A DNA stretch of 64,000 nucleotides from Planctomycetota bacterium (lineage in GTDB: Bacteria > Planctomycetota > GCA-002687715). The notes beneath the pieces were generated by a model. The model worked only from the letters and a program-made list of their open reading frames with translations. It was not told the DNA's origin and made no database searches. Shown here piece after piece: positions 22,686 through 47,518 of this stretch. Position 1 is the stretch's first letter; every line of letters starts with the position of its first letter. A program made the position numbers and the translations under genes. The stretch spans positions 85,419-149,418 of the forward strand of contig SIAO01000004.1 in NCBI GenBank assembly GCA_009691765.1, in the 5' to 3' direction.

Positions 22686-22777
22686 CTCCGCGTAGGTCGT
22701 CGGGATTGTAGGCAGGGCTGCCGCGAGCGTCCAAGGTGCGTTGCGTAGAAGGGGTCCGCGCCGTTACTCTGGAGGCC

Positions 22778-24178
22778 ATGTTGCGCCTATATTTCTCGCT
22801 GCTTGCGTTCGCTGCCATGCTTCCGGCCCAAGTGGGCTACGGCACGCTCTTGCAATCACTCTCGCCGATTCAAACTGCTGGACTCACAGCGGTAAGCCTG
22901 CCCGGCAACCCGAGCATCACCACCAACGAAATCGTGGCCCTGAGTCAAGGTGAACCCAATGGCTCGGGGCGCTCGCTGTTCAATGCTCAGTCTTTGGGCC
23001 TACTCTTCGGCGATCGCAACGGCGACGGCTTTCCGTTCGACTGGCCGGACATCGACGCCTTGGAAGTCGTAGCGCCGCCGCCCAACACATTGCAGCCCTC
23101 ACCCTTCGACTTGCGCTTCTCGTTCGGTGCCAATGTCCTCGCCGCCAACGGCAGCACCTTGGTGAACACCGGAGACATCGTGAGGCTCACCGGTATTGGC
23201 ACCTACGCCATTCACATTCCGCGCGGCGCGTTCCAAGCGGCCATCGGCACGAACGCCGCTTTGAATGTTGACGCCTATGCCGAACTGGCGGACGGCGCTG
23301 TGCTGGTTTCGTTCGCAGGCGCTGGCACTGGAAACAACATCATCAATCCGCTGAACGGCCAGACCGGAAACCTGCTGAGTTGGACTGGCGCTGACGTGTT
23401 CGTCATTCGCCCGCCCTTTGGCGCGCTGCCAGCGTTGTTTGCATATCGCCAAAGCGACCTCGCCCAAGTGGTGAACTTCTACTACGGCGGCAGCTACGTG
23501 CTCTCTGAGGTCAGCGATATTGAAGAACAACCCAATGTTGGTTGGGTGTCTAACCAAACATGGGACCCAGCCGGCGTGTATCAAGGCGGACAACGCCCGC
23601 GGCTGCTTTGGACTGTCGCTGGCGACGAAAATGTTTTCTGCTGGAGCAGCACGCTGAATCCGCTCAGCACGAGCCACAATTTCTACGCATTAATTGGCGG
23701 CACCACCGGATCGAGCATGGGCTACGCCACCAATCTCGGCGGCTACCGCGTCGTGGCCGACGCGCTGGCCATCTGGCCGCGCACCATGACGACCTCCACG
23801 CGCATGACCATTGATGCTTCTTCGCTGACGCCAACTGCCGGAAGCTCGATTTACTTCGATGTGCGCTCCCGCGAAGCTGGTGGCACATTCTTCGAATTGG
23901 TGCTCTCTGGCACGACGAGTCCTGGCATGGGCATCACGCTCGGGACGAACGGCTTCATGCATTTGATGGCGCCCTACACCGATCCTTTGCTGCTCTGGAG
24001 CATCAGTCCGGCGGTGGCGCCGTTGTTCATCACCGGTGGAGCGAGTGCTCAAGGCACCGGTGGGTCCATCACATTCACGTTGCCCGCAAACGCAGCAGGT
24101 TTAGCGCTTGTGGTGCAGGCCGTGCGCGTCGGCAATGGCTGGCCCTTGTCCGCACCACTCTTCTTCAAAGTGCTGTGA
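22778..24178 (+). CDS. secreted hypothetical protein (Gly/Thr/Ser/Asn-rich, beta-rich)
   Basis: Signal peptide MLRLYFSLLAFAAMLPAQV and no recognisable domain. GGAGG sits upstream of the ATG. Confidence 0.5.
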   Translation: MLRLYFSLLAFAAMLPAQVGYGTLLQSLSPIQTAGLTAVSLPGNPSITTNEIVALSQGEPNGSGRSLFNAQSLGLLFGDRNGDGFPFDWPDIDALEVVAPPPNTLQPSPFDLRFSFGANVLAANGSTLVNTGDIVRLTGIGTYAIHIPRGAFQAAIGTNAALNVDAYAELADGAVLVSFAGAGTGNNIINPLNGQTGNLLSWTGADVFVIRPPFGALPALFAYRQSDLAQVVNFYYGGSYVLSEVSDIEEQPNVGWVSNQTWDPAGVYQGGQRPRLLWTVAGDENVFCWSSTLNPLSTSHNFYALIGGTTGSSMGYATNLGGYRVVADALAIWPRTMTTSTRMTIDASSLTPTAGSSIYFDVRSREAGGTFFELVLSGTTSPGMGITLGTNGFMHLMAPYTDPLLLWSISPAVAPLFITGGASAQGTGGSITFTLPANAAGLALVVQAVRVGNGWPLSAPLFFKVL

Positions 24179-24179
24179 C

Positions 24180-25406
24180 TTAACGCAGCGTGCTGCGAAA
24201 GATCCGCTCGGCTTCTTCTTGCGAGAAGCCGAAAGCGCGCGCGAAGGCCGTTTCGAAGGGCAGTTGCTCACGCAGACTCTGAAACACGGTGCGCAACGCA
24301 GCAGCACCATGGCGTTCGATCAACCACTCGGTGTAGGCCAGCGCGTGACGATAAAGCAGACTCACTTCGTCGCGATTGCTGAGCGCGCTCCAGTCTTCTG
24401 GTGATTCTCGCAACGGCTTGCGCGTTTCTTCTTTGGTGAGCACCTTGGTGTCGCTGGTAGCGCGACCTTCGTGATGTTGCGCCAATCCCTCATGCAGCCA
24501 CGTCGGGCAAGCCGGCGCGAGCGTGCGTAGAAACCAGTGCACCATTTCGTGAGTCAATGTGCGCCGCAACTGATCTTCCTCGCGCTCGCGGCGTTCCAAG
24601 GGGATGCGCACGCGCCCATCGAAGCGTCCGCCAGACCATTCAGGCGCGCCAGCACTCAGCAAGTACGACTTGCGCGCCAAGAGCACGATGACAAGCCCGC
24701 GCTGCGGCCGCGCACCAAGAGAGACTTCGATGCTCGACGCCGCACGCTGTGCTGCATCGAGAACTTCGCGAGCACGCTCACGTTCTTCAAGCCCCGGATA
24801 CTTCACGGTGAAGCCTGCACCAACTTCGCGAAGAAAGCCGCCCTCGGTTTCCGCTTCTGTCTGCCAACGCGAGAGCAACACCTTGAGTCCTGCGATATCA
24901 ATGAGAGTTGCAGCCTCAGGCGCTGTGAGCGCGGCTTGCGCAGCACTCACGGCTTCGTCCAACAAATCTTCGTCGTAGGCCAAGAGTGCACGCGAACTCA
25001 GCACACGCGCGTCCCCTGCTGCTGCACTCTTCACATCAGGCAGCACGCACCGCGCTTGCGCAAGCTCACCGCGACGACGCAAGATGTCGAGGAGTAGCGC
25101 GATTGCATTCGGATCTTGTGCTTCCAGTTGCAACGCTCGGCGCACATCGGTTTCAGCCGCAATCGAACGCCCTGCTGCGACATGTTCGCGCGCGCGGCGC
25201 ACAAGCACGACGCAGAGATTGGTGCGGATGGTCTCAGCTTTGCTGTCGCTCAGCCACGCCTGTTCGAACAGTTCCACAGCCTTGTCGAGTTTTCCGGCCG
25301 CGGCTGCTGTAACGCCTTCTTGGTTGAGTTCGAAAGCACGCTCTTCCGCCTGGGCTACAAGGCCGCCTGAAAGCAGCACACATAACAGCCAGTGCGCATA
25401 ACGCAT
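24180..25406 (-). CDS. secreted TPR-like protein with HExxH zinc-metallopeptidase motif
   Basis: Signal peptide, TPR-like helical repeats, and HEMVHW...EGLAQHHE (zincin-like). The start overlaps the kinase stop (TAATG). Confidence 0.55.
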   Translation of the reverse strand: MRYAHWLLCVLLSGGLVAQAEERAFELNQEGVTAAAAGKLDKAVELFEQAWLSDSKAETIRTNLCVVLVRRAREHVAAGRSIAAETDVRRALQLEAQDPNAIALLLDILRRRGELAQARCVLPDVKSAAAGDARVLSSRALLAYDEDLLDEAVSAAQAALTAPEAATLIDIAGLKVLLSRWQTEAETEGGFLREVGAGFTVKYPGLEERERAREVLDAAQRAASSIEVSLGARPQRGLVIVLLARKSYLLSAGAPEWSGGRFDGRVRIPLERREREEDQLRRTLTHEMVHWFLRTLAPACPTWLHEGLAQHHEGRATSDTKVLTKEETRKPLRESPEDWSALSNRDEVSLLYRHALAYTEWLIERHGAAALRTVFQSLREQLPFETAFARAFGFSQEEAERIFRSTLR

Positions 25407-26455
25407 TAGCGCAGGCGTCTTAGACGCGGGTCGCTCTTGGGTGTGGGCGGTGGTGCCGAACCGATGCCAGTCTGCGCCATGATGTCTTCCACGAGTGCCT
25501 GCGGACTCGCGTAACGCACCTCGCGCTCCAAGGCCATCATCTTCTGAATGAAATAATGCATGCGCTGCGAGATACCGAGAGCCTTCAATTCCGGCGAGCG
25601 CAGTTCGTCCAACAAGCGCCGTGCCATGCCTTCATCGTCCGTGGGGCCTTCAAAAGGCAGGCGCCCCACCACGAGGTGATAAAGACTCGCTCCGAGCGCA
25701 TAAATGTCAGCGCGCGGGTCGAGGCCAGAACCCGTCGCCTGCTCCGGCGCAATGTAGGCACGTGTTCCAGCAGTGGTCTCACCCGCCGCGTGATCGAGCT
25801 TCACTGCGAGCCCAAGATCGCAGAGCTTCACTCGCCCTTGCGGATCCAACAGGATGTTCGCCGGCTTCACATCGCGATGCAGGAAGCCGTGTTCGTGCAT
25901 ATGAGTGAGCGCGCGCGCCACCTGCACAATGACCGCGAGCGCTTTCTCTTCGGTGAAGCGGCCGCGGCGGTCCAGTTCTTCTTGCGCGGAACAACCCGGA
26001 AAGCACTCCATCACGAAATAAATCAAGCCTTCATGCTCGTGCAGATACCAACCTTTCACGAGGTTGGGATGCTCGAGGCGACAGAGCAGCTCTCCTTCTG
26101 CACGGAACTCCGCTGCGGAACGAGGATCTCGAGCCAGGCGCGGATGCAGGATCTTGACGGCCACATCGCAGCGAGCCTCAATGTCGCGCGCCCGAATGAC
26201 ACGACCCATTCCTCCGCGAGCCAATTGAGGCCCCAAAAGTAGCCCGGGAAGCAACTTCTCCGGCGGGTGCTCGCCCTGCAACAAGGCTGCTTCACCTGCC
26301 GTGATCCAATGTTTACGCAAACAAATGTCCGCCACGCCGAGCACATGACCGCGCTGTTGTAATTCGGCCTGCTTCGCCAAAACCGCGCGCGCCGTAGCTT
26401 CATCGAGCAACCCTTCCATCACGAGCCGCGCTGCGAGTTTGCCACCACCATCCAT
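25406..26455 (-). CDS. serine/threonine protein kinase
   Basis: G-loop LARGGMGRV, VAVKIL, HRDVKPANILL, DLGLA and APE motifs. No TM segment. Confidence 0.85.
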   Translation of the reverse strand: MDGGGKLAARLVMEGLLDEATARAVLAKQAELQQRGHVLGVADICLRKHWITAGEAALLQGEHPPEKLLPGLLLGPQLARGGMGRVIRARDIEARCDVAVKILHPRLARDPRSAAEFRAEGELLCRLEHPNLVKGWYLHEHEGLIYFVMECFPGCSAQEELDRRGRFTEEKALAVIVQVARALTHMHEHGFLHRDVKPANILLDPQGRVKLCDLGLAVKLDHAAGETTAGTRAYIAPEQATGSGLDPRADIYALGASLYHLVVGRLPFEGPTDDEGMARRLLDELRSPELKALGISQRMHYFIQKMMALEREVRYASPQALVEDIMAQTGIGSAPPPTPKSDPRLRRLR

Positions 26456-26469
26456 GTTGCGATGCTACC

Positions 26470-26560
26470 GAGGCTGCAGAGCATGTGTCAATAAAAGCAA
26501 AAAATCCGTAATCGGGAATGTGCTCGCAACAGCCTCTAATACATACGCCGTCGTTTTCCG
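26470..26560 (+). promoter_or_regulatory. AT-rich divergent promoter region between the Ser/Thr kinase and the ClpB-D2-like ATPase
   Basis: Locally AT-rich stretch in a 65% GC genome. TGTCAA-N15/17-CGTAAT/TAATCG sigma70-like elements are oriented toward the plus-strand gene. Confidence 0.35.
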
Positions 26561-26647
26561 AAACAGAACCAGAAGCGAGGTTCGCGCAAGGGACGGCGCG
26601 GGCCCGAGTTTGGTTGGTTGGTCATAGTCAAGCGAGGAATCGACACA

Positions 26648-27988
26648 ATGGCGATCGGTGACGTCAATCTCGTGCTGAAATATTGCGAGGCACTCGATGA
26701 GTTCCTGCGCATCCGCGTGTGTTCAGAAACTGAAGCCAAGGCACTACTTGCCAATGGTTGCAGTGGAGACCGCGCCGCTTACCAGTTACACGTCATGCAG
26801 CACACGCTGCTGGATTTCAATCCTGGGCTCAGTGCACGATTGGAAAGCGTGAAACTTCAGGGCACTGTGGCGGACATTGATGAGGTTCTCTACCTCCTGA
26901 GTGTGGACGTCAATCCCGGCCTCGATATCCATCAGGTCTCTATCCCGCTCATGCTCGCGGATGTCTGCAAAGATGAGGAACTTGACGCGCTGTCACAGCC
27001 GGCGCCCAAGTCGAAGAAGCAGCTCGAACGCGTCATGGTCATGGACCGCGAGCTCAAGAAGCGCATTGTGGGCCAAGACTCGGCGGTCGAGATCGTGAGC
27101 CGCGCCATGAAGAAGGCCGCCGTCGGCCTGCGCGATCCGCGCCGCCCCATCGGCGCCTTCCTCTGCGTCGGCCATGTTGGCGTGGGCAAAACCGAATTGG
27201 CCAAGTCGCTCACCGAATACCTCTACGGCACGCAAACCAAACTGATCCGCGTGGATTGCTCGGAGTACGCACTGCCGCACGAATACGCGAAGCTCATCGG
27301 TTCTCCCCCGGGCTACATCGGGCACAACGAAGGCGGCTATCTCACGGAAGCGGCCAAGGAGATGGACGAGTTCGTAGTGCTCTTCGATGAAATCGAGAAA
27401 GCGCACAGCAAGATGCACAACATCCTGCTGCAACTTCTTGACGAAGGCATGGTCACGGATTCCAAGGGCTTCAAAGTTTCCTTCCGCAATGCGTTGGTGC
27501 TGATGACCAGCAACATCGGTGTGCGCGAAGTGGAGGACGCACGCGGCGCCATCGGCTTCGATTCTGATGCACGCGAGAACACGAGCTACGAACGTCACCG
27601 CAGCGCCATCGATGAGGCACTCAAGAAATGCTTCCGACCAGAGTTCTTGAACCGCCTCGACGAAGTGATCGTGTTCAACACTCTGACGCGTGATGACAGC
27701 GTGCGCATCGTGGACATCATGCTCGGCGAAATGGGTCGTATCGCGAAACGAGCCGGCATCAACTTGCACTTCGACGCCAGCGTGAAACGCACCTTGGCAG
27801 AGAAGGGCTGGCGCAAAGAGTGTGGCGCGCGCGAACTACGCCGCACGCTCAAGCAACAAATCGAAACGCCGCTCACGGACTTGCTGCTCGACGGCACCAT
27901 CCGTGAAGGCATGGATGTGCGCGTGCGTGCACGCGCCGGTGAAATCAGTTTCGAGCCGCAACATCTCGAAACTCCCAGCAACGTCTGA
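26648..27988 (+). CDS. single-module ClpB/Hsp104 D2-type AAA+ ATPase with novel N-terminal domain
   Basis: RIVGQDSAV, P-loop GHVGVGKTELAK, Walker B VVLFDEIEKAH, and the ClpB C-terminal PEFLNRLDEVIVF small domain. The first ~130 aa are unrecognised. ATG at 26648 is preceded by GAGGAA; the track ORF begins at TTG 26618. Confidence 0.7.
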   Translation: MAIGDVNLVLKYCEALDEFLRIRVCSETEAKALLANGCSGDRAAYQLHVMQHTLLDFNPGLSARLESVKLQGTVADIDEVLYLLSVDVNPGLDIHQVSIPLMLADVCKDEELDALSQPAPKSKKQLERVMVMDRELKKRIVGQDSAVEIVSRAMKKAAVGLRDPRRPIGAFLCVGHVGVGKTELAKSLTEYLYGTQTKLIRVDCSEYALPHEYAKLIGSPPGYIGHNEGGYLTEAAKEMDEFVVLFDEIEKAHSKMHNILLQLLDEGMVTDSKGFKVSFRNALVLMTSNIGVREVEDARGAIGFDSDARENTSYERHRSAIDEALKKCFRPEFLNRLDEVIVFNTLTRDDSVRIVDIMLGEMGRIAKRAGINLHFDASVKRTLAEKGWRKECGARELRRTLKQQIETPLTDLLLDGTIREGMDVRVRARAGEISFEPQHLETPSNV

Positions 27989-29302: not shown

Positions 29303-29830
29303 TCAGGGGAACAGGAAAGTTGGTGCGGTCATGCTGGCCGTAGCCACAGCATCATCTTTGATGAGGATCGCACCGTACCGAGTTTGATCGCCATGAGCGG
29401 CGCTCACAAGGAAGCGTTCACCGCCATCGCGTGCTTCGCGCTTCAAGAAGACGATACTGGCGTAGCCTTCAGCCACGAGCCAGCGACGTGCGATGTCTTC
29501 AGCCTCGGGTGGTGTTGCTGCGCCGCGCTCGACCGCATAACGCAGGTCCTTGCGCACTTCTTTCAACTCGCCGCGCAACGTCTCAACAGCCGCCAGCGCA
29601 TCGCGTTGAGCAACGCGCACCTCTGCGAGCAGGCGCTGCACCTCGCCGTCAGGTGTCGAAGGCACGACCACCGGTGGCCGCGCCACCAAGTCATTCAAGC
29701 GCCGCTCCACACCCTCGATGCGTTCCGCTGTGTTCATGCGCACGCGCTTCATGGCCTCGATCTGCCGCCAAAGCAGAGCTACGCCCACGACCAGCGCGAC
29801 GAACAAAACGATGTCCATGACAGGCGGCAT
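29303..29830 (-). CDS. membrane-anchored hypothetical protein
   Basis: N-terminal TM helix followed by a coiled-coil/charged region. Forms a 3-gene minus-strand run with asnS. Confidence 0.45.
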   Translation of the reverse strand: MPPVMDIVLFVALVVGVALLWRQIEAMKRVRMNTAERIEGVERRLNDLVARPPVVVPSTPDGEVQRLLAEVRVAQRDALAAVETLRGELKEVRKDLRYAVERGAATPPEAEDIARRWLVAEGYASIVFLKREARDGGERFLVSAAHGDQTRYGAILIKDDAVATASMTAPTFLFP

Positions 29831-43997: not shown

Positions 43998-44972
43998 ATG
44001 CTCTCGCTCGTGAAGCACGCCGCTGAGTATTTACGCCATCTCGAACACGCGCGTGGCGCTTCGGAACTCACGGTCAGCGCCTACGCACGCGACCTCGCGC
44101 AACTTTCACAAGTGCACGGCGGACAAGCGTGTGACCCCACGCGACTGACCACAGCGAACTTGAAAGCGCACGTCGTGGCTTTGCTCGGACGCGGCTTGGG
44201 ACGCGCGTCCGTGGCCAGACATGTTTCCTCTATCCGCGGTTTGTATCGCTGGTTGTTGGCGAGTGGCAAAGTCACTGCCGATCCAACAACCGCAATCCGC
44301 GTGCCGCGCCCTCGCCGCGCTTTGCCACGCGCGCTGTCGAATACAGATTTGCAACGCCTGCTTGCCGCTCCCGTGGGAGAAAACTTCGTCGACACTCGCG
44401 ACCGGGCGGTGCTGGAAGTGCTCTACAGCTCTGGAATGCGTGTGGCCGAACTCGCGGGGCTGGAACTCGAAGCCATTGATTCCAGCGGCGGAATCGTGCG
44501 AGTCCTTGGCAAGGGTCGCAAAGAACGCTTGTGCTTTCTTGGAAGCCACGCACTGGAAGCGCTTGAAGCATGGTGGCCCTTACGCAAATCCATGTGCCGC
44601 GGCCGCGAGCGCCAACGCGTGTTCTTGAACCGCCTTGGAACGCCGCTCACGGATCGTAGTGTGCGGCGCATTCTTGAGCGCTGCATTCGGCGCGCTGGCA
44701 TGCCGCGCGGCATCTCACCGCACACGCTGCGCCACACTTTCGCGACGCATTTACTGCTGGCAGGTGCCGGGCTGAAAGAAGTGCAAGAAATGCTGGGCCA
44801 CCGCCAGCTCTCCAGCACGCAGATCTACACACACGTCACGCCATCACATTTGAAAACGGTGTATGAGGCAGCGCACCCGCGAGCAAAACTCAGTCGGAAG
44901 CTTCTTCGTGGTGGCGCAGATACCACGCCAGCATCGTCCCGACGCAACGCTCGCACCAAGAGTGCTCCGTAA
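43998..44972 (+). CDS. xerC: tyrosine recombinase XerC/XerD
   Basis: R...HxxR...Y catalytic tetrad (HTLRHTFATHLL...IYTHV) and an N-terminal SAM-like domain. The track ORF starts at 43971. Confidence 0.8.
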   Translation: MLSLVKHAAEYLRHLEHARGASELTVSAYARDLAQLSQVHGGQACDPTRLTTANLKAHVVALLGRGLGRASVARHVSSIRGLYRWLLASGKVTADPTTAIRVPRPRRALPRALSNTDLQRLLAAPVGENFVDTRDRAVLEVLYSSGMRVAELAGLELEAIDSSGGIVRVLGKGRKERLCFLGSHALEALEAWWPLRKSMCRGRERQRVFLNRLGTPLTDRSVRRILERCIRRAGMPRGISPHTLRHTFATHLLLAGAGLKEVQEMLGHRQLSSTQIYTHVTPSHLKTVYEAAHPRAKLSRKLLRGGADTTPASSRRNARTKSAP

Positions 44973-47151
44973 TCAGGCGCGTGCCGAAAGCCGTTGCGGC
45001 CTCGCGGCGCTCCTTGTCTAATTCTTGGCCTGTGCCCATGAGCACCTGCATGGAGTCGCGCACCAATTGCAAAACTTTCGACTCGCGTTCGCGATAGAAG
45101 CTGCGTTCCAGAGCACGGAACTGAACTTGGAATAGCTCGCGCAGCACCAGCGGTGCCTCGGGGTTGCCAAGGCGGAAAGCAGCAATGCGCCGAATGATGT
45201 TGCTGCGAAACTCCTCAGCGCCGCTGCTGACACCCATGAGGCGTTCAACATCTTCCATCAGGCGCCGGTCCGGCTGACGCGCCTCACGAGTCCGTGGGTC
45301 GGCCACGCTCTCGCCAGTGCCGAAAGCTTTAATTTCGCGGATCCAATCGGCGAAGAGGCGATCCGCTTCGCGCTCGTCCACCAATTGCGATGCACTGCGT
45401 AATTCGCGAGAGAGTGCACGGATAAGCTCCTCGCGCGCCGTGGTAATAAACGCCTCAGACTGACCATAGGCGCCATTCGCAGGCACACGCAAGAAGGCAT
45501 AGAGCGTCGGATCGCTGAGCAAGCGTGGTAGTGCCTCCAGCAAATCCATAGGCAGAATGCACTCGCCGTGTTTCTCCACCGCTACTTCCGAAAGCAAGTT
45601 CAGCATTTCGCGCGGCGAAGCACCGCAGCGGCCTTCGTACGCCGCTTCAACGCATTCTTCGAACTCATCTTCGGCTCCGTCCCATTCAGTCGCTATGACC
45701 TCTGCTGACTCGCGCAGTAATTGCTGTTCCTGCTCGTCGAGATTGTCCGGCAGCGTGCCATCTTCGTAGAAGCGTGCCTTCTCGATGGGCGCGAGTTTGC
45801 GCACCACTTTGGCCAGCACACCTTCGTAGGCCGCCACATCTGGACGACGCAATCGTGTGAGCACCGCGAATAACGCTGTGACCATAGACGCGTGCGGCGC
45901 CACATGACTGCTGCGCGCCACGGATGCCAAATGGCGCTCGTAGATTTGCGCTTCGTCGGACCAGCGTCGCAAATACGGCACGCGCACGAATTCCATGCGC
46001 CCCTTGAAACTTGGGAAACTCGGATCGCGCTTGAAGGCCGCGAGGTACTTCTCGTCGGAGGTCCCGACGAACAAGAGATCCAGTGCCACCGTCATGGAGG
46101 GCAAGTTCACAAAACCGCGCTCGACGGTGGTCAGCAGATACTTGTTCGCTTCCAAGGCGCGCTTCAAGAAATCGCTGTATTCCGCCACGCCGTGATTGGC
46201 ATCGACCAAGTCGCCGTGCGCTTCGTGCATCTCCTCGTGTGAGAGCACCGCGGGCAGCCCCTCCATCGATGCGTGCGTAAGCATGCGCGTGCCAGCGTCC
46301 ACGGTTGTCTGCGGTTCGATGGTCACCGCGCCAGTGCGGTAGCGATGCGAGATGTAATAACGCTCTACGCGCACATGGCGCAGCACTTGGCGCCAATCGC
46401 CTTTGTAACTGCGCAACAAAGCCTCATAGAGCACCTTATTCTTGGGCGACAATTCACCTTTCAAGAGCAACTCGCTCGGCACATAGCGTGCGCGATCTTC
46501 TTCCGTGGCTGCTTCGAGTGCCTCATTGATGATCTCGACGCGCCGCTTCTTGGGGATGAGCAACCATGGCGGGTCTTTCATCTCGCAAGGCAGGCGACTG
46601 CTAATCAAGCGGTCATCCATGTTTGCGAGAGAGCTGTCCTCTGCGGCACTGAGCTTGCCGCCGAATCCAAGCTCTCCCTTGTCGCCGCGTTCGCAAAAAA
46701 CCCACGAGAAACGAAATAGCGGGCAGGCTTCGTCGCGGCTGTAGGCTTCAAGCCCAGAGCGGATGCAGTCAACAAGGCTGCTCTTCGAAGCGCCATTGGG
46801 GCCATGCAGCAACACGAAGCGGTCACAGCGCCCGCGCTCCGCAAAGCCCGAGATCACTTCATAAATGCGGTTCTGCACCGGCTCTTGACCAAAGACTTGA
46901 GCTGCGCCATCTCCGCCTGGGTCATCGAACAGCATGAAGCGCCGTTGCTTGCCACCCAGCCCATCCACTTCGTAGGCGCCGTAATGCTCGAACATGTCGC
47001 GCAGCACTTGGTGCACATTGCGTGTGAGCGTGTACGGCCGCAGCAGTAAGAGCTCGAGGTACTCCTCGAAAGAGAGCTGCACACGCTTGGCGGCGAAGGC
47101 TTCCTTCGACATTTGCGCGATGCGCTCGATGGTCTTGTCAGCTTGCATAGC
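44890..47151 (-). CDS. prkA: PrkA-family serine protein kinase (AAA-like)
   Basis: MQADKTIERIAQMSKEAFAAKRVQLSFEEYL and LLHGPNGASKSS are colinear with YeaG/PrkA. Confidence 0.85.
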   Translation of the reverse strand, partial: AMQADKTIERIAQMSKEAFAAKRVQLSFEEYLELLLLRPYTLTRNVHQVLRDMFEHYGAYEVDGLGGKQRRFMLFDDPGGDGAAQVFGQEPVQNRIYEVISGFAERGRCDRFVLLHGPNGASKSSLVDCIRSGLEAYSRDEACPLFRFSWVFCERGDKGELGFGGKLSAAEDSSLANMDDRLISSRLPCEMKDPPWLLIPKKRRVEIINEALEAATEEDRARYVPSELLLKGELSPKNKVLYEALLRSYKGDWRQVLRHVRVERYYISHRYRTGAVTIEPQTTVDAGTRMLTHASMEGLPAVLSHEEMHEAHGDLVDANHGVAEYSDFLKRALEANKYLLTTVERGFVNLPSMTVALDLLFVGTSDEKYLAAFKRDPSFPSFKGRMEFVRVPYLRRWSDEAQIYERHLASVARSSHVAPHASMVTALFAVLTRLRRPDVAAYEGVLAKVVRKLAPIEKARFYEDGTLPDNLDEQEQQLLRESAEVIATEWDGAEDEFEECVEAAYEGRCGASPREMLNLLSEVAVEKHGECILPMDLLEALPRLLSDPTLYAFLRVPANGAYGQSEAFITTAREELIRALSRELRSASQLVDEREADRLFADWIREIKAFGTGESVADPRTREARQPDRRLMEDVERLMGVSSGAEEFRSNIIRRIAAFRLGNPEAPLVLRELFQVQFRALERSFYRERESKVLQLVRDSMQVLMGTGQELDKERREAATAFGTRLITEHSWCERCVGTMLAWYLRHHEEASD

Positions 47152-47518
47152 GCAGCCCTCATCAAGCAGATACGCAGCCGCAACCCGAGCGAACAGACGC
47201 AACCTGCCGTGGTGGACTTATCGGCGCGGCGGGGTGGGTTTGCAGTAGAAAAACAATTTCCGCTCACACCTATTTGGGCTGCCATAACTCAAAGCTGCGA
47301 GACCGGTTGGGAACCCCGACTTTGCCCTGCACCCAAGATTCGGGTGAGTGAAACCCCGTCTCATTGGTCACAAGATGCCTCACCAAGCCACTCTCCAAGG
47401 CGGTGTTGGTCATCGTGGTGTATTGCGCCTGAAAACACCGACGAATAGCAGTAGCGAGTCGGCGACCAGTTTCACTGAAACAGAACCAACGCCGCCAGTC
47501 GATACCCGCATTCCGCCA

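Follow-up and report, generated by a model that had tools for sequence, protein, structure and literature searches.

The described Clp ATPase classes are ClpX, ClpA, ClpC, ClpE, ClpL, ClpB, and ClpV, to which ClpI was recently added; the closest precedent in kind for the present work is ClpI, which was defined bioinformatically in Actinomycetota (PMC10149685). Here, we compare these systems with a locus within a stretch of 64,000 nucleotides from a Planctomycetota bacterium (contig SIAO01000004.1, positions 85,419 to 149,418; hereafter, the window). The locus holds a gene encoding a single-module Clp/Hsp100 ATPase, a divergently transcribed gene encoding a Hanks-type Ser/Thr kinase, and, after the kinase gene, one encoding a secreted protein with tetratricopeptide repeats (TPR) and a metallopeptidase domain. 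On balance, the evidence leans toward a Planctomycetota-wide, single-ring ClpP-partner unfoldase with a private N-terminal domain (the N-domain) and a cognate Hanks kinase. The novelty lies in the single-ring ClpC-type architecture, the N-domain, and the link to the kinase; the motor and the probable protease partner are of known kinds. The initial annotation, made from the DNA letters alone, had called the three-gene module undescribed, and a search of the open-access literature likewise returned no account of the ATPase family, its N-domain, or the kinase pairing.

In Staphylococcus aureus ClpC, the tripeptide AGF (residues 671 to 673) forms the tip of the P-loop and docks into the hydrophobic H-sites of ClpP, and its mutation abolishes ClpP binding (PMC12521514). 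The isolated second nucleotide-binding domain (NBD2) of ClpB/Hsp104 is inactive, probably for want of hexamers, and Skd3 (human CLPB), a stand-alone disaggregase with ankyrin repeats, requires its N-terminal domain in cis (PMC7343390). In the McsA-McsB-ClpC system, as described in a preprint (bioRxiv 10.1101/2022.09.15.508104), the activated kinase phosphorylates substrates and targets them to ClpC.

A single-module Clp ATPase with a putative ClpP-docking loop

The ATPase gene encodes 446 amino acids (aa), and its product matches, at 100% identity, a database protein (P0001, 446 aa) that derives from a Planctomycetes metagenome-assembled genome (MAG). The open reading frame (ORF) extends upstream to a TTG (26618..27988; 456 aa); this TTG at 26618 is not conserved, and all homologues begin at the ATG at 26648, which is preceded by AGGA. 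The features of the gene are as follows.

26648..27988 (+), single-module Clp/Hsp100 ATPase, 446 aa (Pfam AAA_2 and ClpB_D2-small)
26648..26947 (+), N-terminal family-specific domain, aa 1-100: beta-hairpin and four helices, with the signatures VLKYCExLDEF and VNPxLEIHQV
26948..27022 (+), variable, mostly acidic linker, aa ~101-125 (gap-rich, poorly conserved alignment columns)
27143..27667 (+), AAA_2 large ATPase domain (Pfam; invariant columns)
27170-27193 (+), Walker A, GHVGVGKT
27311-27322 (+), pore loop, GYIG
27377-27391 (+), Walker B, DE
27551..27559 (+), IGF tripeptide, aa 302-304, predicted tip of a ClpP-docking P-loop
27653-27655 (+), Arg finger
27683..27925 (+), D2-small C-terminal domain (Pfam ClpB_D2-small), with the sensor-2 GAR at 27824-27832

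Pfam finds a single AAA_2 domain (171 bits) and a ClpB_D2-small domain (70 bits) in the product and no first nucleotide-binding module (D1), middle domain (M-domain), or Clp_N domain. The NCBIfam ClpB model (TIGR03346) covers the protein at model positions 552 to 852 only (327 bits versus a cut-off of 1232), which indicates that the ATPase corresponds to the second module (D2) alone. Walker A (GxxGxGKT), the GYIG pore loop, the Walker B DE, the sensor-1 TSN, the Arg finger (FRPEFxNR), and the sensor-2 GAR are invariant in an alignment of 29 homologues. These results bear out the earlier description of the protein as a single D2-type Clp module with intact motifs.

Among solved structures, the best match is the D2 module of S. 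aureus ClpC (6em8; 277.7 bits, E value of 1.7e-81), followed by Thermus thermophilus ClpB D2 (272.5 bits), ClpA (214 bits), and human CLPB/Skd3 (about 165 bits). Similarity to ClpB/Hsp104 is thus equal to that for ClpC. ClpB, however, is a two-ring protein with an M-domain and differs at one informative place. The sequence between sensor 1 and the Arg-finger helix of the ATPase reads ...EDARGAIGFDSDAR...; the Gly-Phe in it lines up with that of ClpC (...QDQRFA-GFGGS...), whereas T. thermophilus ClpB has a 9-residue gap exactly there. In a MAFFT alignment of 118 full-length members, the tripeptide at this site is MGF (42 members), IGF (39), VGF (15), CGF (14), LGF (4), or IGY, VGL, AGF, and MGL (1 each), so that in all 118 the Gly is preceded by a hydrophobic residue and followed by Phe, Leu, or Tyr. 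Column entropy is 0 for the Gly and 0.19 bits for the Phe, compared with about 2 to 3.5 bits at most neighboring loop positions, a pattern expected of a docking tip under purifying selection.

Because this loop is conserved throughout the family, aligns with the AGF of ClpC, and is missing from ClpB, the ATPase is probably a ClpP-coupled single-ring unfoldase rather than a disaggregase. The initial annotation had labeled it ClpB-D2 and disaggregase-like, a label that does not fit a module with a ClpC/ClpA-type hydrophobic-Gly-Phe loop and ClpC as its best solved relative. An engineered ClpB carrying the ClpA P-loop (PDB 5ofo) is also among the structure matches of the ATPase; such a graft was reportedly sufficient for ClpB to bind ClpP (the "BAP" variant of Weibezahn, 2004).

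The ATPase resembles ClpC and ClpA in its pore loop, Walker motifs, Arg finger, and D2-small domain, as well as in a P-loop of the same length with a hydrophobic-Gly-Phe tip. Unlike ClpC, ClpA, and ClpE, it has an unrelated N-domain of about 100 aa in place of D1, the M-domain, and Clp_N. In its predicted layout, with one AAA+ ring, a small specialized N-domain, and an IGF-type loop, it is like ClpX. However, homology to ClpX is limited to the AAA+ core (33.7 bits versus 359 for NF003745 and 21.6 versus 371 for TIGR00382), the N-domain has no Cys cluster and thus no C4 zinc-binding domain, and the gene does not lie beside tig-clpP.

Family distribution and the N-domain

The initial annotation had called the ATPase an orphan. 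This does not hold, since two N-domain patterns scanned over one genome per species identified at least 291 genomes that encode the N-domain. Full-length homologues in a protein search number more than 120 (416 to 511 aa, 45 to 87% identity, 93 to 98% query coverage), and those with a phylum label all come from Planctomycetota MAGs. The labels "ATP-dependent Clp protease ATP-binding subunit" and "AAA family ATPase" are the ones that databases currently give to the family. When a profile was built from just the N-domain, only 148 proteins matched among 1.84 billion cluster representatives. Ten longer or atypical N-domain proteins were scanned, of which nine have AAA_2 and eight of these also have D2-small; the tenth, of 260 aa, gave no match.

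The N-terminal domain had been put at about 130 aa with no obvious relatives. Its folded part is shorter, about 100 aa, and is followed by the variable acidic linker of about 25 aa, but the domain is indeed private to the family, and structure searches gave no convincing match. Residues K11, Y12, D17, E18, F19, R23, L81, Y82, V88, N89, I94, and H95 are invariant. An AlphaFold2 model built from a 40-sequence alignment (pLDDT of 84.2, pTM of 0.78) has a beta-hairpin followed by four helices, a fold unrelated to Clp_N, the ClpX zinc domain, or ankyrin repeats. Foldseek against viral models returned tail assembly chaperones with template modeling scores of about 0.45 to 0.54, none at an E value of <0.001, and a tail-assembly-chaperone-like fold is therefore a weak lead. 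By analogy, the N-domain may support ring assembly in addition to recognition of clients or adaptors, since an isolated NBD2 is inactive and Skd3 needs its N-terminal domain in cis.

Several distant relatives (P0235, P0254, P0223, P0228, P0213, and P0248) are longer (590 to 1092 aa), with an N-like domain at about residues 170 to 260, one AAA_2 plus D2-small module, and an (I/V/M/A)GFG loop. Among the scanned long relatives, P0223, P0228, and P0254 contain a LAGLIDADG intein, which in P0223 lies just past Walker A. P0235 (L089:7001-8965) and P0254 (L090:7001-9904), the two whose contigs were read, sit on phage-like contigs with arrays of small unannotated ORFs and genes for Rad52/Rad22, a DNA methylase, a Holliday-junction endonuclease, and uracil-DNA glycosylase. 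In a collection of known phages, no record covered at least 80% of P0235, and the matches were generic D2 matches only. Because the N-domain is weakly tail-assembly-chaperone-like and relatives occur on phage-like contigs, the unfoldase may have a phage origin.

Linkage between the kinase and ATPase genes

The kinase gene lies upstream of the ATPase gene on the opposite strand, and the two share an intergenic region.

25406..26455 (-), soluble Hanks-type Ser/Thr kinase, 349 aa; kinase domain (Pkinase) at 25490-26227
26456..26647, divergent intergenic region, 192 bp, 52.6% GC, including the ribosome-binding site of the ATPase gene
26491 to 26462 (-), sigma-70-like site for the kinase gene, TTGACA-18-TAGCAT

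The kinase consists of an N-terminal region of about 70 aa, the kinase domain (170 bits versus a Pfam cut-off of 31.7), and a basic C-terminal tail, and it has no transmembrane segment, in agreement with the initial annotation of a soluble Ser/Thr kinase divergent from the ATPase. K101, HRD, N200, DLG, T228 and T231 of the activation loop, and APE are invariant in six aligned orthologues, and the enzyme, which is sensor-less, is therefore predicted to be catalytically competent. The orthologues are 39 to 58% identical and share the N-terminal region, the signature HYFIxKMMA...RYQSP, and an Arg-rich C-terminal tail, which ends in RLRRLR here (window 25409-25440, -) and in RRRRxRRRR in relatives. 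The combination of this basic tail with the mostly acidic linker of the ATPase suggests a possible electrostatic contact or a degron.

Locus-level counts come from 80 of the 291 species-level loci; all 80 are in MAGs, and those with a phylum label are all Planctomycetota. The counts rest on tblastn, because ORF clustering of neighbors undercounts genes in these GC-rich loci. Seventy-one loci have at least 1.5 kb of upstream sequence and are thus informative for kinase adjacency, and in 65 of them an orthologue of the kinase gene lies directly upstream of the ATPase gene on the opposite strand, with a median distance of 252 bp between aligned starts. The neighborhoods of five homologues (46 to 69% identity) all contain the divergent pair, but the three most distant have different genes on the remaining flanks. 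The reciprocal search gave the same result: four kinase homologues on long contigs, taken from among the most distant listed (43 to 50% identity), all have an adjacent divergent ATPase gene, whose product (449 to 468 aa) has AAA_2 and D2-small. For comparison, 80 metagenome loci of generic Hanks kinases, taken from among the matches listed at 32 to 41% identity to the kinase query, contain neither the ATPase (0 of 80) nor the TPR protein (0 of 80). The ORF clustering, subject to the undercount noted above, revealed no other widely shared neighbor family.

Since the kinase gene shares its promoter region with the ATPase gene in almost every genome, the kinase appears to be a functional partner of the ATPase, and, judging from gene order, we consider some functional coupling of the two quite likely. 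The co-occurrence of these genes in other genomes had been named beforehand as a check on the initial annotation, and they do prove to be co-conserved elsewhere. Its "AT-rich divergent promoter" is correct as to a shared divergent region but not as to composition, the GC content of the region being 52.6% compared with 60.6% for the window. Blocks within the intergenic region are conserved in two close relatives, which are too close for this conservation to mean much.

Two candidate features of this region and of the kinase were considered and dropped. A regulatory RNA in the 192-bp leader has no Rfam support, as nothing matched at an E value of up to 1 except one chance small nucleolar RNA. 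The N-terminus of the kinase (KLAARLVMEGLLDEATARAVLAKQ, aa 6 to 29, window 26377-26440, -; in relatives, RFAARLVVDGFV...LKSQ) resembles the 24-residue consensus of the cyclic di-GMP-binding MshEN/T2SSE_N motif, RLGxxLLxxGLLxxxxLxxxLxxQ. This candidate is unsupported, in that Pfam searches of three kinase orthologues found no MshEN/T2SSE_N-related family even at an E value of up to 10.

In the subclade that lacks the adjacent kinase (L032, L039, L056, L065, L070, and L083; e.g., L083:7590-9398 and L039:11347-12285), a HAMP histidine kinase gene directly follows the ATPase gene, together with a gene for an RsmE-type RNA methyltransferase and, about three genes downstream, one for a forkhead-associated (FHA) domain protein of the phospho-Thr-binding type. 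L007 also has a histidine kinase gene after the ATPase gene.

Genes downstream of the kinase

In the window, the kinase gene is followed on the same strand by the gene for the TPR-peptidase.

24180..25406 (-), secreted TPR and gluzincin metallopeptidase, 408 aa
25347-25406 (-), signal peptide, ending in AQA|EE
~24837-25346 (-), TPR region
~24183-24836 (-), peptidase domain
24537-24551 (-), HExxH (H286-H290)
24489-24491 (-), third zinc ligand, E306

The kinase stop codon TAA overlaps the TPR-peptidase ATG as TAATG, a translational coupling of the two genes, just as first annotated, and the signal-peptide TPR protein with an HExxH...E motif was also correctly recognized: HExxH and E306 are invariant in an alignment of 26 homologues, along with W257, G260, D263, G264, and Y352. 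Gluzincins (clan MA(E)) are defined by HExxH and a downstream Glu on a thermolysin-like fold, and the TPR gene product belongs with them. The Pfam match to Peptidase_MA_2 is borderline (31.2 bits versus a cut-off of 32.4). Unlike the M1, M9, and M30 gluzincins and Peptidase_MA_2 proteins, the domain is small (about 220 aa) and is preceded by a signal peptide and a TPR array at the N-terminal side. HExxH and the Glu are separated by 15 residues, a shorter spacing than the 18 of M1 peptidases. The family (40 matches) is small and fast evolving and consists of Planctomycetota "hypothetical proteins."

Gene content downstream was scored in the 57 loci that have the kinase and enough sequence past it, with the following results.

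Cys-rich protein and TPR-peptidase, 20 of 57 loci
Cys-rich protein only, 18 of 57 loci
TPR-peptidase only (the clade of the window), 16 of 57 loci
neither, 3 of 57 loci

The TPR-peptidase is thus accessory and clade specific (36 of 57). Of the three-gene unit first proposed, the kinase and ATPase stand as a core, whereas the peptidase is optional, and in many clades a CxxCxxCC protein is found instead of it or as well. A direct physical link of the TPR-peptidase to the kinase or ATPase is unlikely because the former has a signal peptide while the latter two are cytoplasmic.

The Cys-rich protein (108 to 149 aa; CxxCxxCC/YkgJ, PF03692) is encoded directly after the kinase in 38 of the 57 relatives and is absent from the window and its clade. 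The Pfam match to PF03692 is weak (19.4 bits); precomputed tables list the same family for three further loci, unmarked in two and as "weak" in one. By analogy with McsA, this protein could be an adaptor or activator. Examples are as follows.

L006:6277-6726 (-), Cys-rich protein
L008:6178-6504 (-), Cys-rich protein
L171:5092-5466 (+), Cys-rich protein
L173:5077-5448 (+), Cys-rich protein
L174:5097-5465 (+), Cys-rich protein

Just beyond the TPR-peptidase gene in the window is a gene on the other strand (22736-24178, +) for a 480-aa protein with a hydrophobic N-terminus and no Pfam match. It is found in seven close relatives only, always in this position; the two genes converge, with stops 1 nt apart.

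Proposed role in proteolysis

The sequence comparisons establish how the ATPase is built, that its loop is conserved, how widely the family occurs, and that the genes are linked; from these findings, we infer ClpP binding, a role for the N-domain, and kinase biochemistry directed at the unfoldase or its clients. The ATPase would form a single AAA+ ring of the ClpC/ClpA D2 type, arranged like ClpX but related by descent to ClpC. Because the catalytic and pore-loop elements and the hydrophobic-Gly-Phe loop, by which ClpX, ClpA, and ClpC dock onto ClpP, are retained, this ring would use ATP to unfold selected proteins and thread them into ClpP. The N-domain would select substrates or adaptors and would probably aid ring assembly. 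The kinase would phosphorylate the unfoldase, or else its substrates or an adaptor, thereby switching on or directing degradation. The kinase operon additionally encodes the CxxCxxCC protein, the secreted TPR-gluzincin, or both, depending on the clade, with only the peptidase in the window.

A more specific and rather speculative version, to which we give a low probability, is proteolysis directed by Ser/Thr phosphorylation, in which the kinase marks clients or the unfoldase and the ring feeds clients to ClpP. The CxxCxxCC protein would perhaps assist the kinase, and the N-domain would read the mark or bind the kinase. If correct, such a phospho-degron pair would be an independent, nonhomologous reinvention of the McsB/ClpC phospho-arginine degron pathway. 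As in McsA-McsB-ClpC, a protein kinase is combined with a Clp unfoldase bearing a ClpP-docking loop and, in many relatives, with a small Cys-rich protein. Unlike in that system, the kinase is a Hanks Ser/Thr enzyme rather than an arginine kinase, the small protein is of the CxxCxxCC type rather than McsA, the unfoldase has a single rather than a double ring, and the genes are divergent instead of forming one operon. The fold of McsB is that of a phosphagen kinase, and McsA contains zinc fingers; no parts are homologous, and the parallel is an analogy only.

A phylum-wide class of this kind would be an addition to the known Clp classes, namely, a lone ClpC-type D2 ring that has kept the ClpP-docking loop and acquired a new substrate-side domain. 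It would also serve as a natural experiment for asking how a D2 ring on its own assembles and chooses its substrates. Control of bacterial proteolysis by phosphorylation is firmly established only in Firmicutes, where arginine is the residue modified, and the near-obligate pairing with a Hanks kinase makes this locus a testable candidate for another instance.

Alternative explanations

Several observations weigh against the proposed ClpP-partner unfoldase with a cognate kinase. All known members of the ATPase family are from MAGs, and the fold of the N-domain offers no functional clue. Overall similarity does not separate ClpC from ClpB, the ClpB model scores highest for the ATPase among NCBIfam models, and the ClpC-like assignment is drawn from one loop. 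No clpP gene lies within 6 kb in the 80 loci or anywhere in the 64-kb window; clpA and clpC are usually not adjacent to clpP either. As for the kinase, the six loci without it all belong to one subclade, most loci have no phosphatase or FHA gene alongside the pair, and divergent adjacency shows that the genes are inherited together, and probably regulated together, but does not show that their products are physically or enzymatically coupled. The ATPase could be a stand-alone, ClpP-independent single-ring disaggregase or remodeler, a bacterial counterpart of metazoan Skd3/CLPB, with the N-domain in the place of the ankyrin domain and the Gly-Phe loop making some other contact. The shared layout of a non-Clp N-terminal domain, one NBD2-type module, and a C-terminal domain would be explained in this way, as would the top match to the ClpB model, the absence of nearby clpP, and the matches to solved Skd3 chains (E value of about 1e-47; PMC7343390 for Skd3). 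However, a strictly conserved hydrophobic-Gly-Phe tip on an otherwise variable loop that is absent in ClpB is hard to explain without a docking partner, and ClpC outscores Skd3 by about 110 bits. The ATPase also differs from Skd3 in having no ankyrin repeats (by Pfam) and a different N-domain fold, and Skd3 resides in metazoan mitochondria. Skd3 is not known to be a partner of ClpP. We therefore regard a Skd3-like enzyme as a rather improbable alternative.

It is also possible, if still less probable, that the kinase and ATPase genes are co-regulated neighbors or a case of frozen synteny around a common promoter region, their products having no biochemical connection. Divergent transcription, as opposed to a single operon, and the loss of adjacency in one subclade are compatible with this explanation, whereas the persistence of adjacency at 43 to 50% identity while all other flanks change, and its recovery in both directions of the search but never with generic kinases, argue for a functional association. 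The initial annotation had further speculated on a stress or defence-like unit. Partial PADLOC matches exist for the ATPase (PDC-M37B and DolB) and the kinase (PD-T4-6 and mad6), and distant ATPase relatives occur on phage-like contigs. However, PADLOC coverage is limited to the generic AAA+ core (aa 128 to 296) and the generic kinase domain, with no match for the TPR protein, and neither accompanying defence genes nor integrases nor the borders of an island were observed. Furthermore, inheritance is phylum wide, and the locus is core chromosome: within about 8 kb are genes for an asparagine synthase, a glycosyltransferase, and an Asn/Asp-tRNA synthetase convergent with the ATPase gene, and elsewhere in the window are those for SMC, YidC, BamA, LpxB, DnaB, and PtsI. 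An anti-phage defence module or stress island is accordingly very unlikely. Finally, the D2-only match to the ClpB model would also be expected if the gene were the remnant of a full-length clpB or clpC broken by a frameshift, the outcome that had been named beforehand as refuting the initial annotation. The kinase gene begins 192 bp upstream on the opposite strand, which leaves no room for a frameshifted D1; the ATPase gene has its own ATG and ribosome-binding site, and more than 118 homologues of comparable length (440 to 470 aa) have the same N-domain, such that a fragment can practically be dismissed.

Other genes in the window

The only tRNA genes in the whole window are two in number. 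Downstream of the Asn/Asp-tRNA synthetase gene is a gene (29303-29830, -) for a 175-aa protein with a hydrophobic N-terminus and no Pfam match, which is conserved in five close relatives only. At a distance of 17 kb from the kinase-ATPase pair, the window also encodes a PrkA-type AAA/Ser-kinase protein (44890-47202, -; PrkA and AAA_PrkA, 770 aa), a second and unrelated combination of AAA+ and kinase-type domains in this region.

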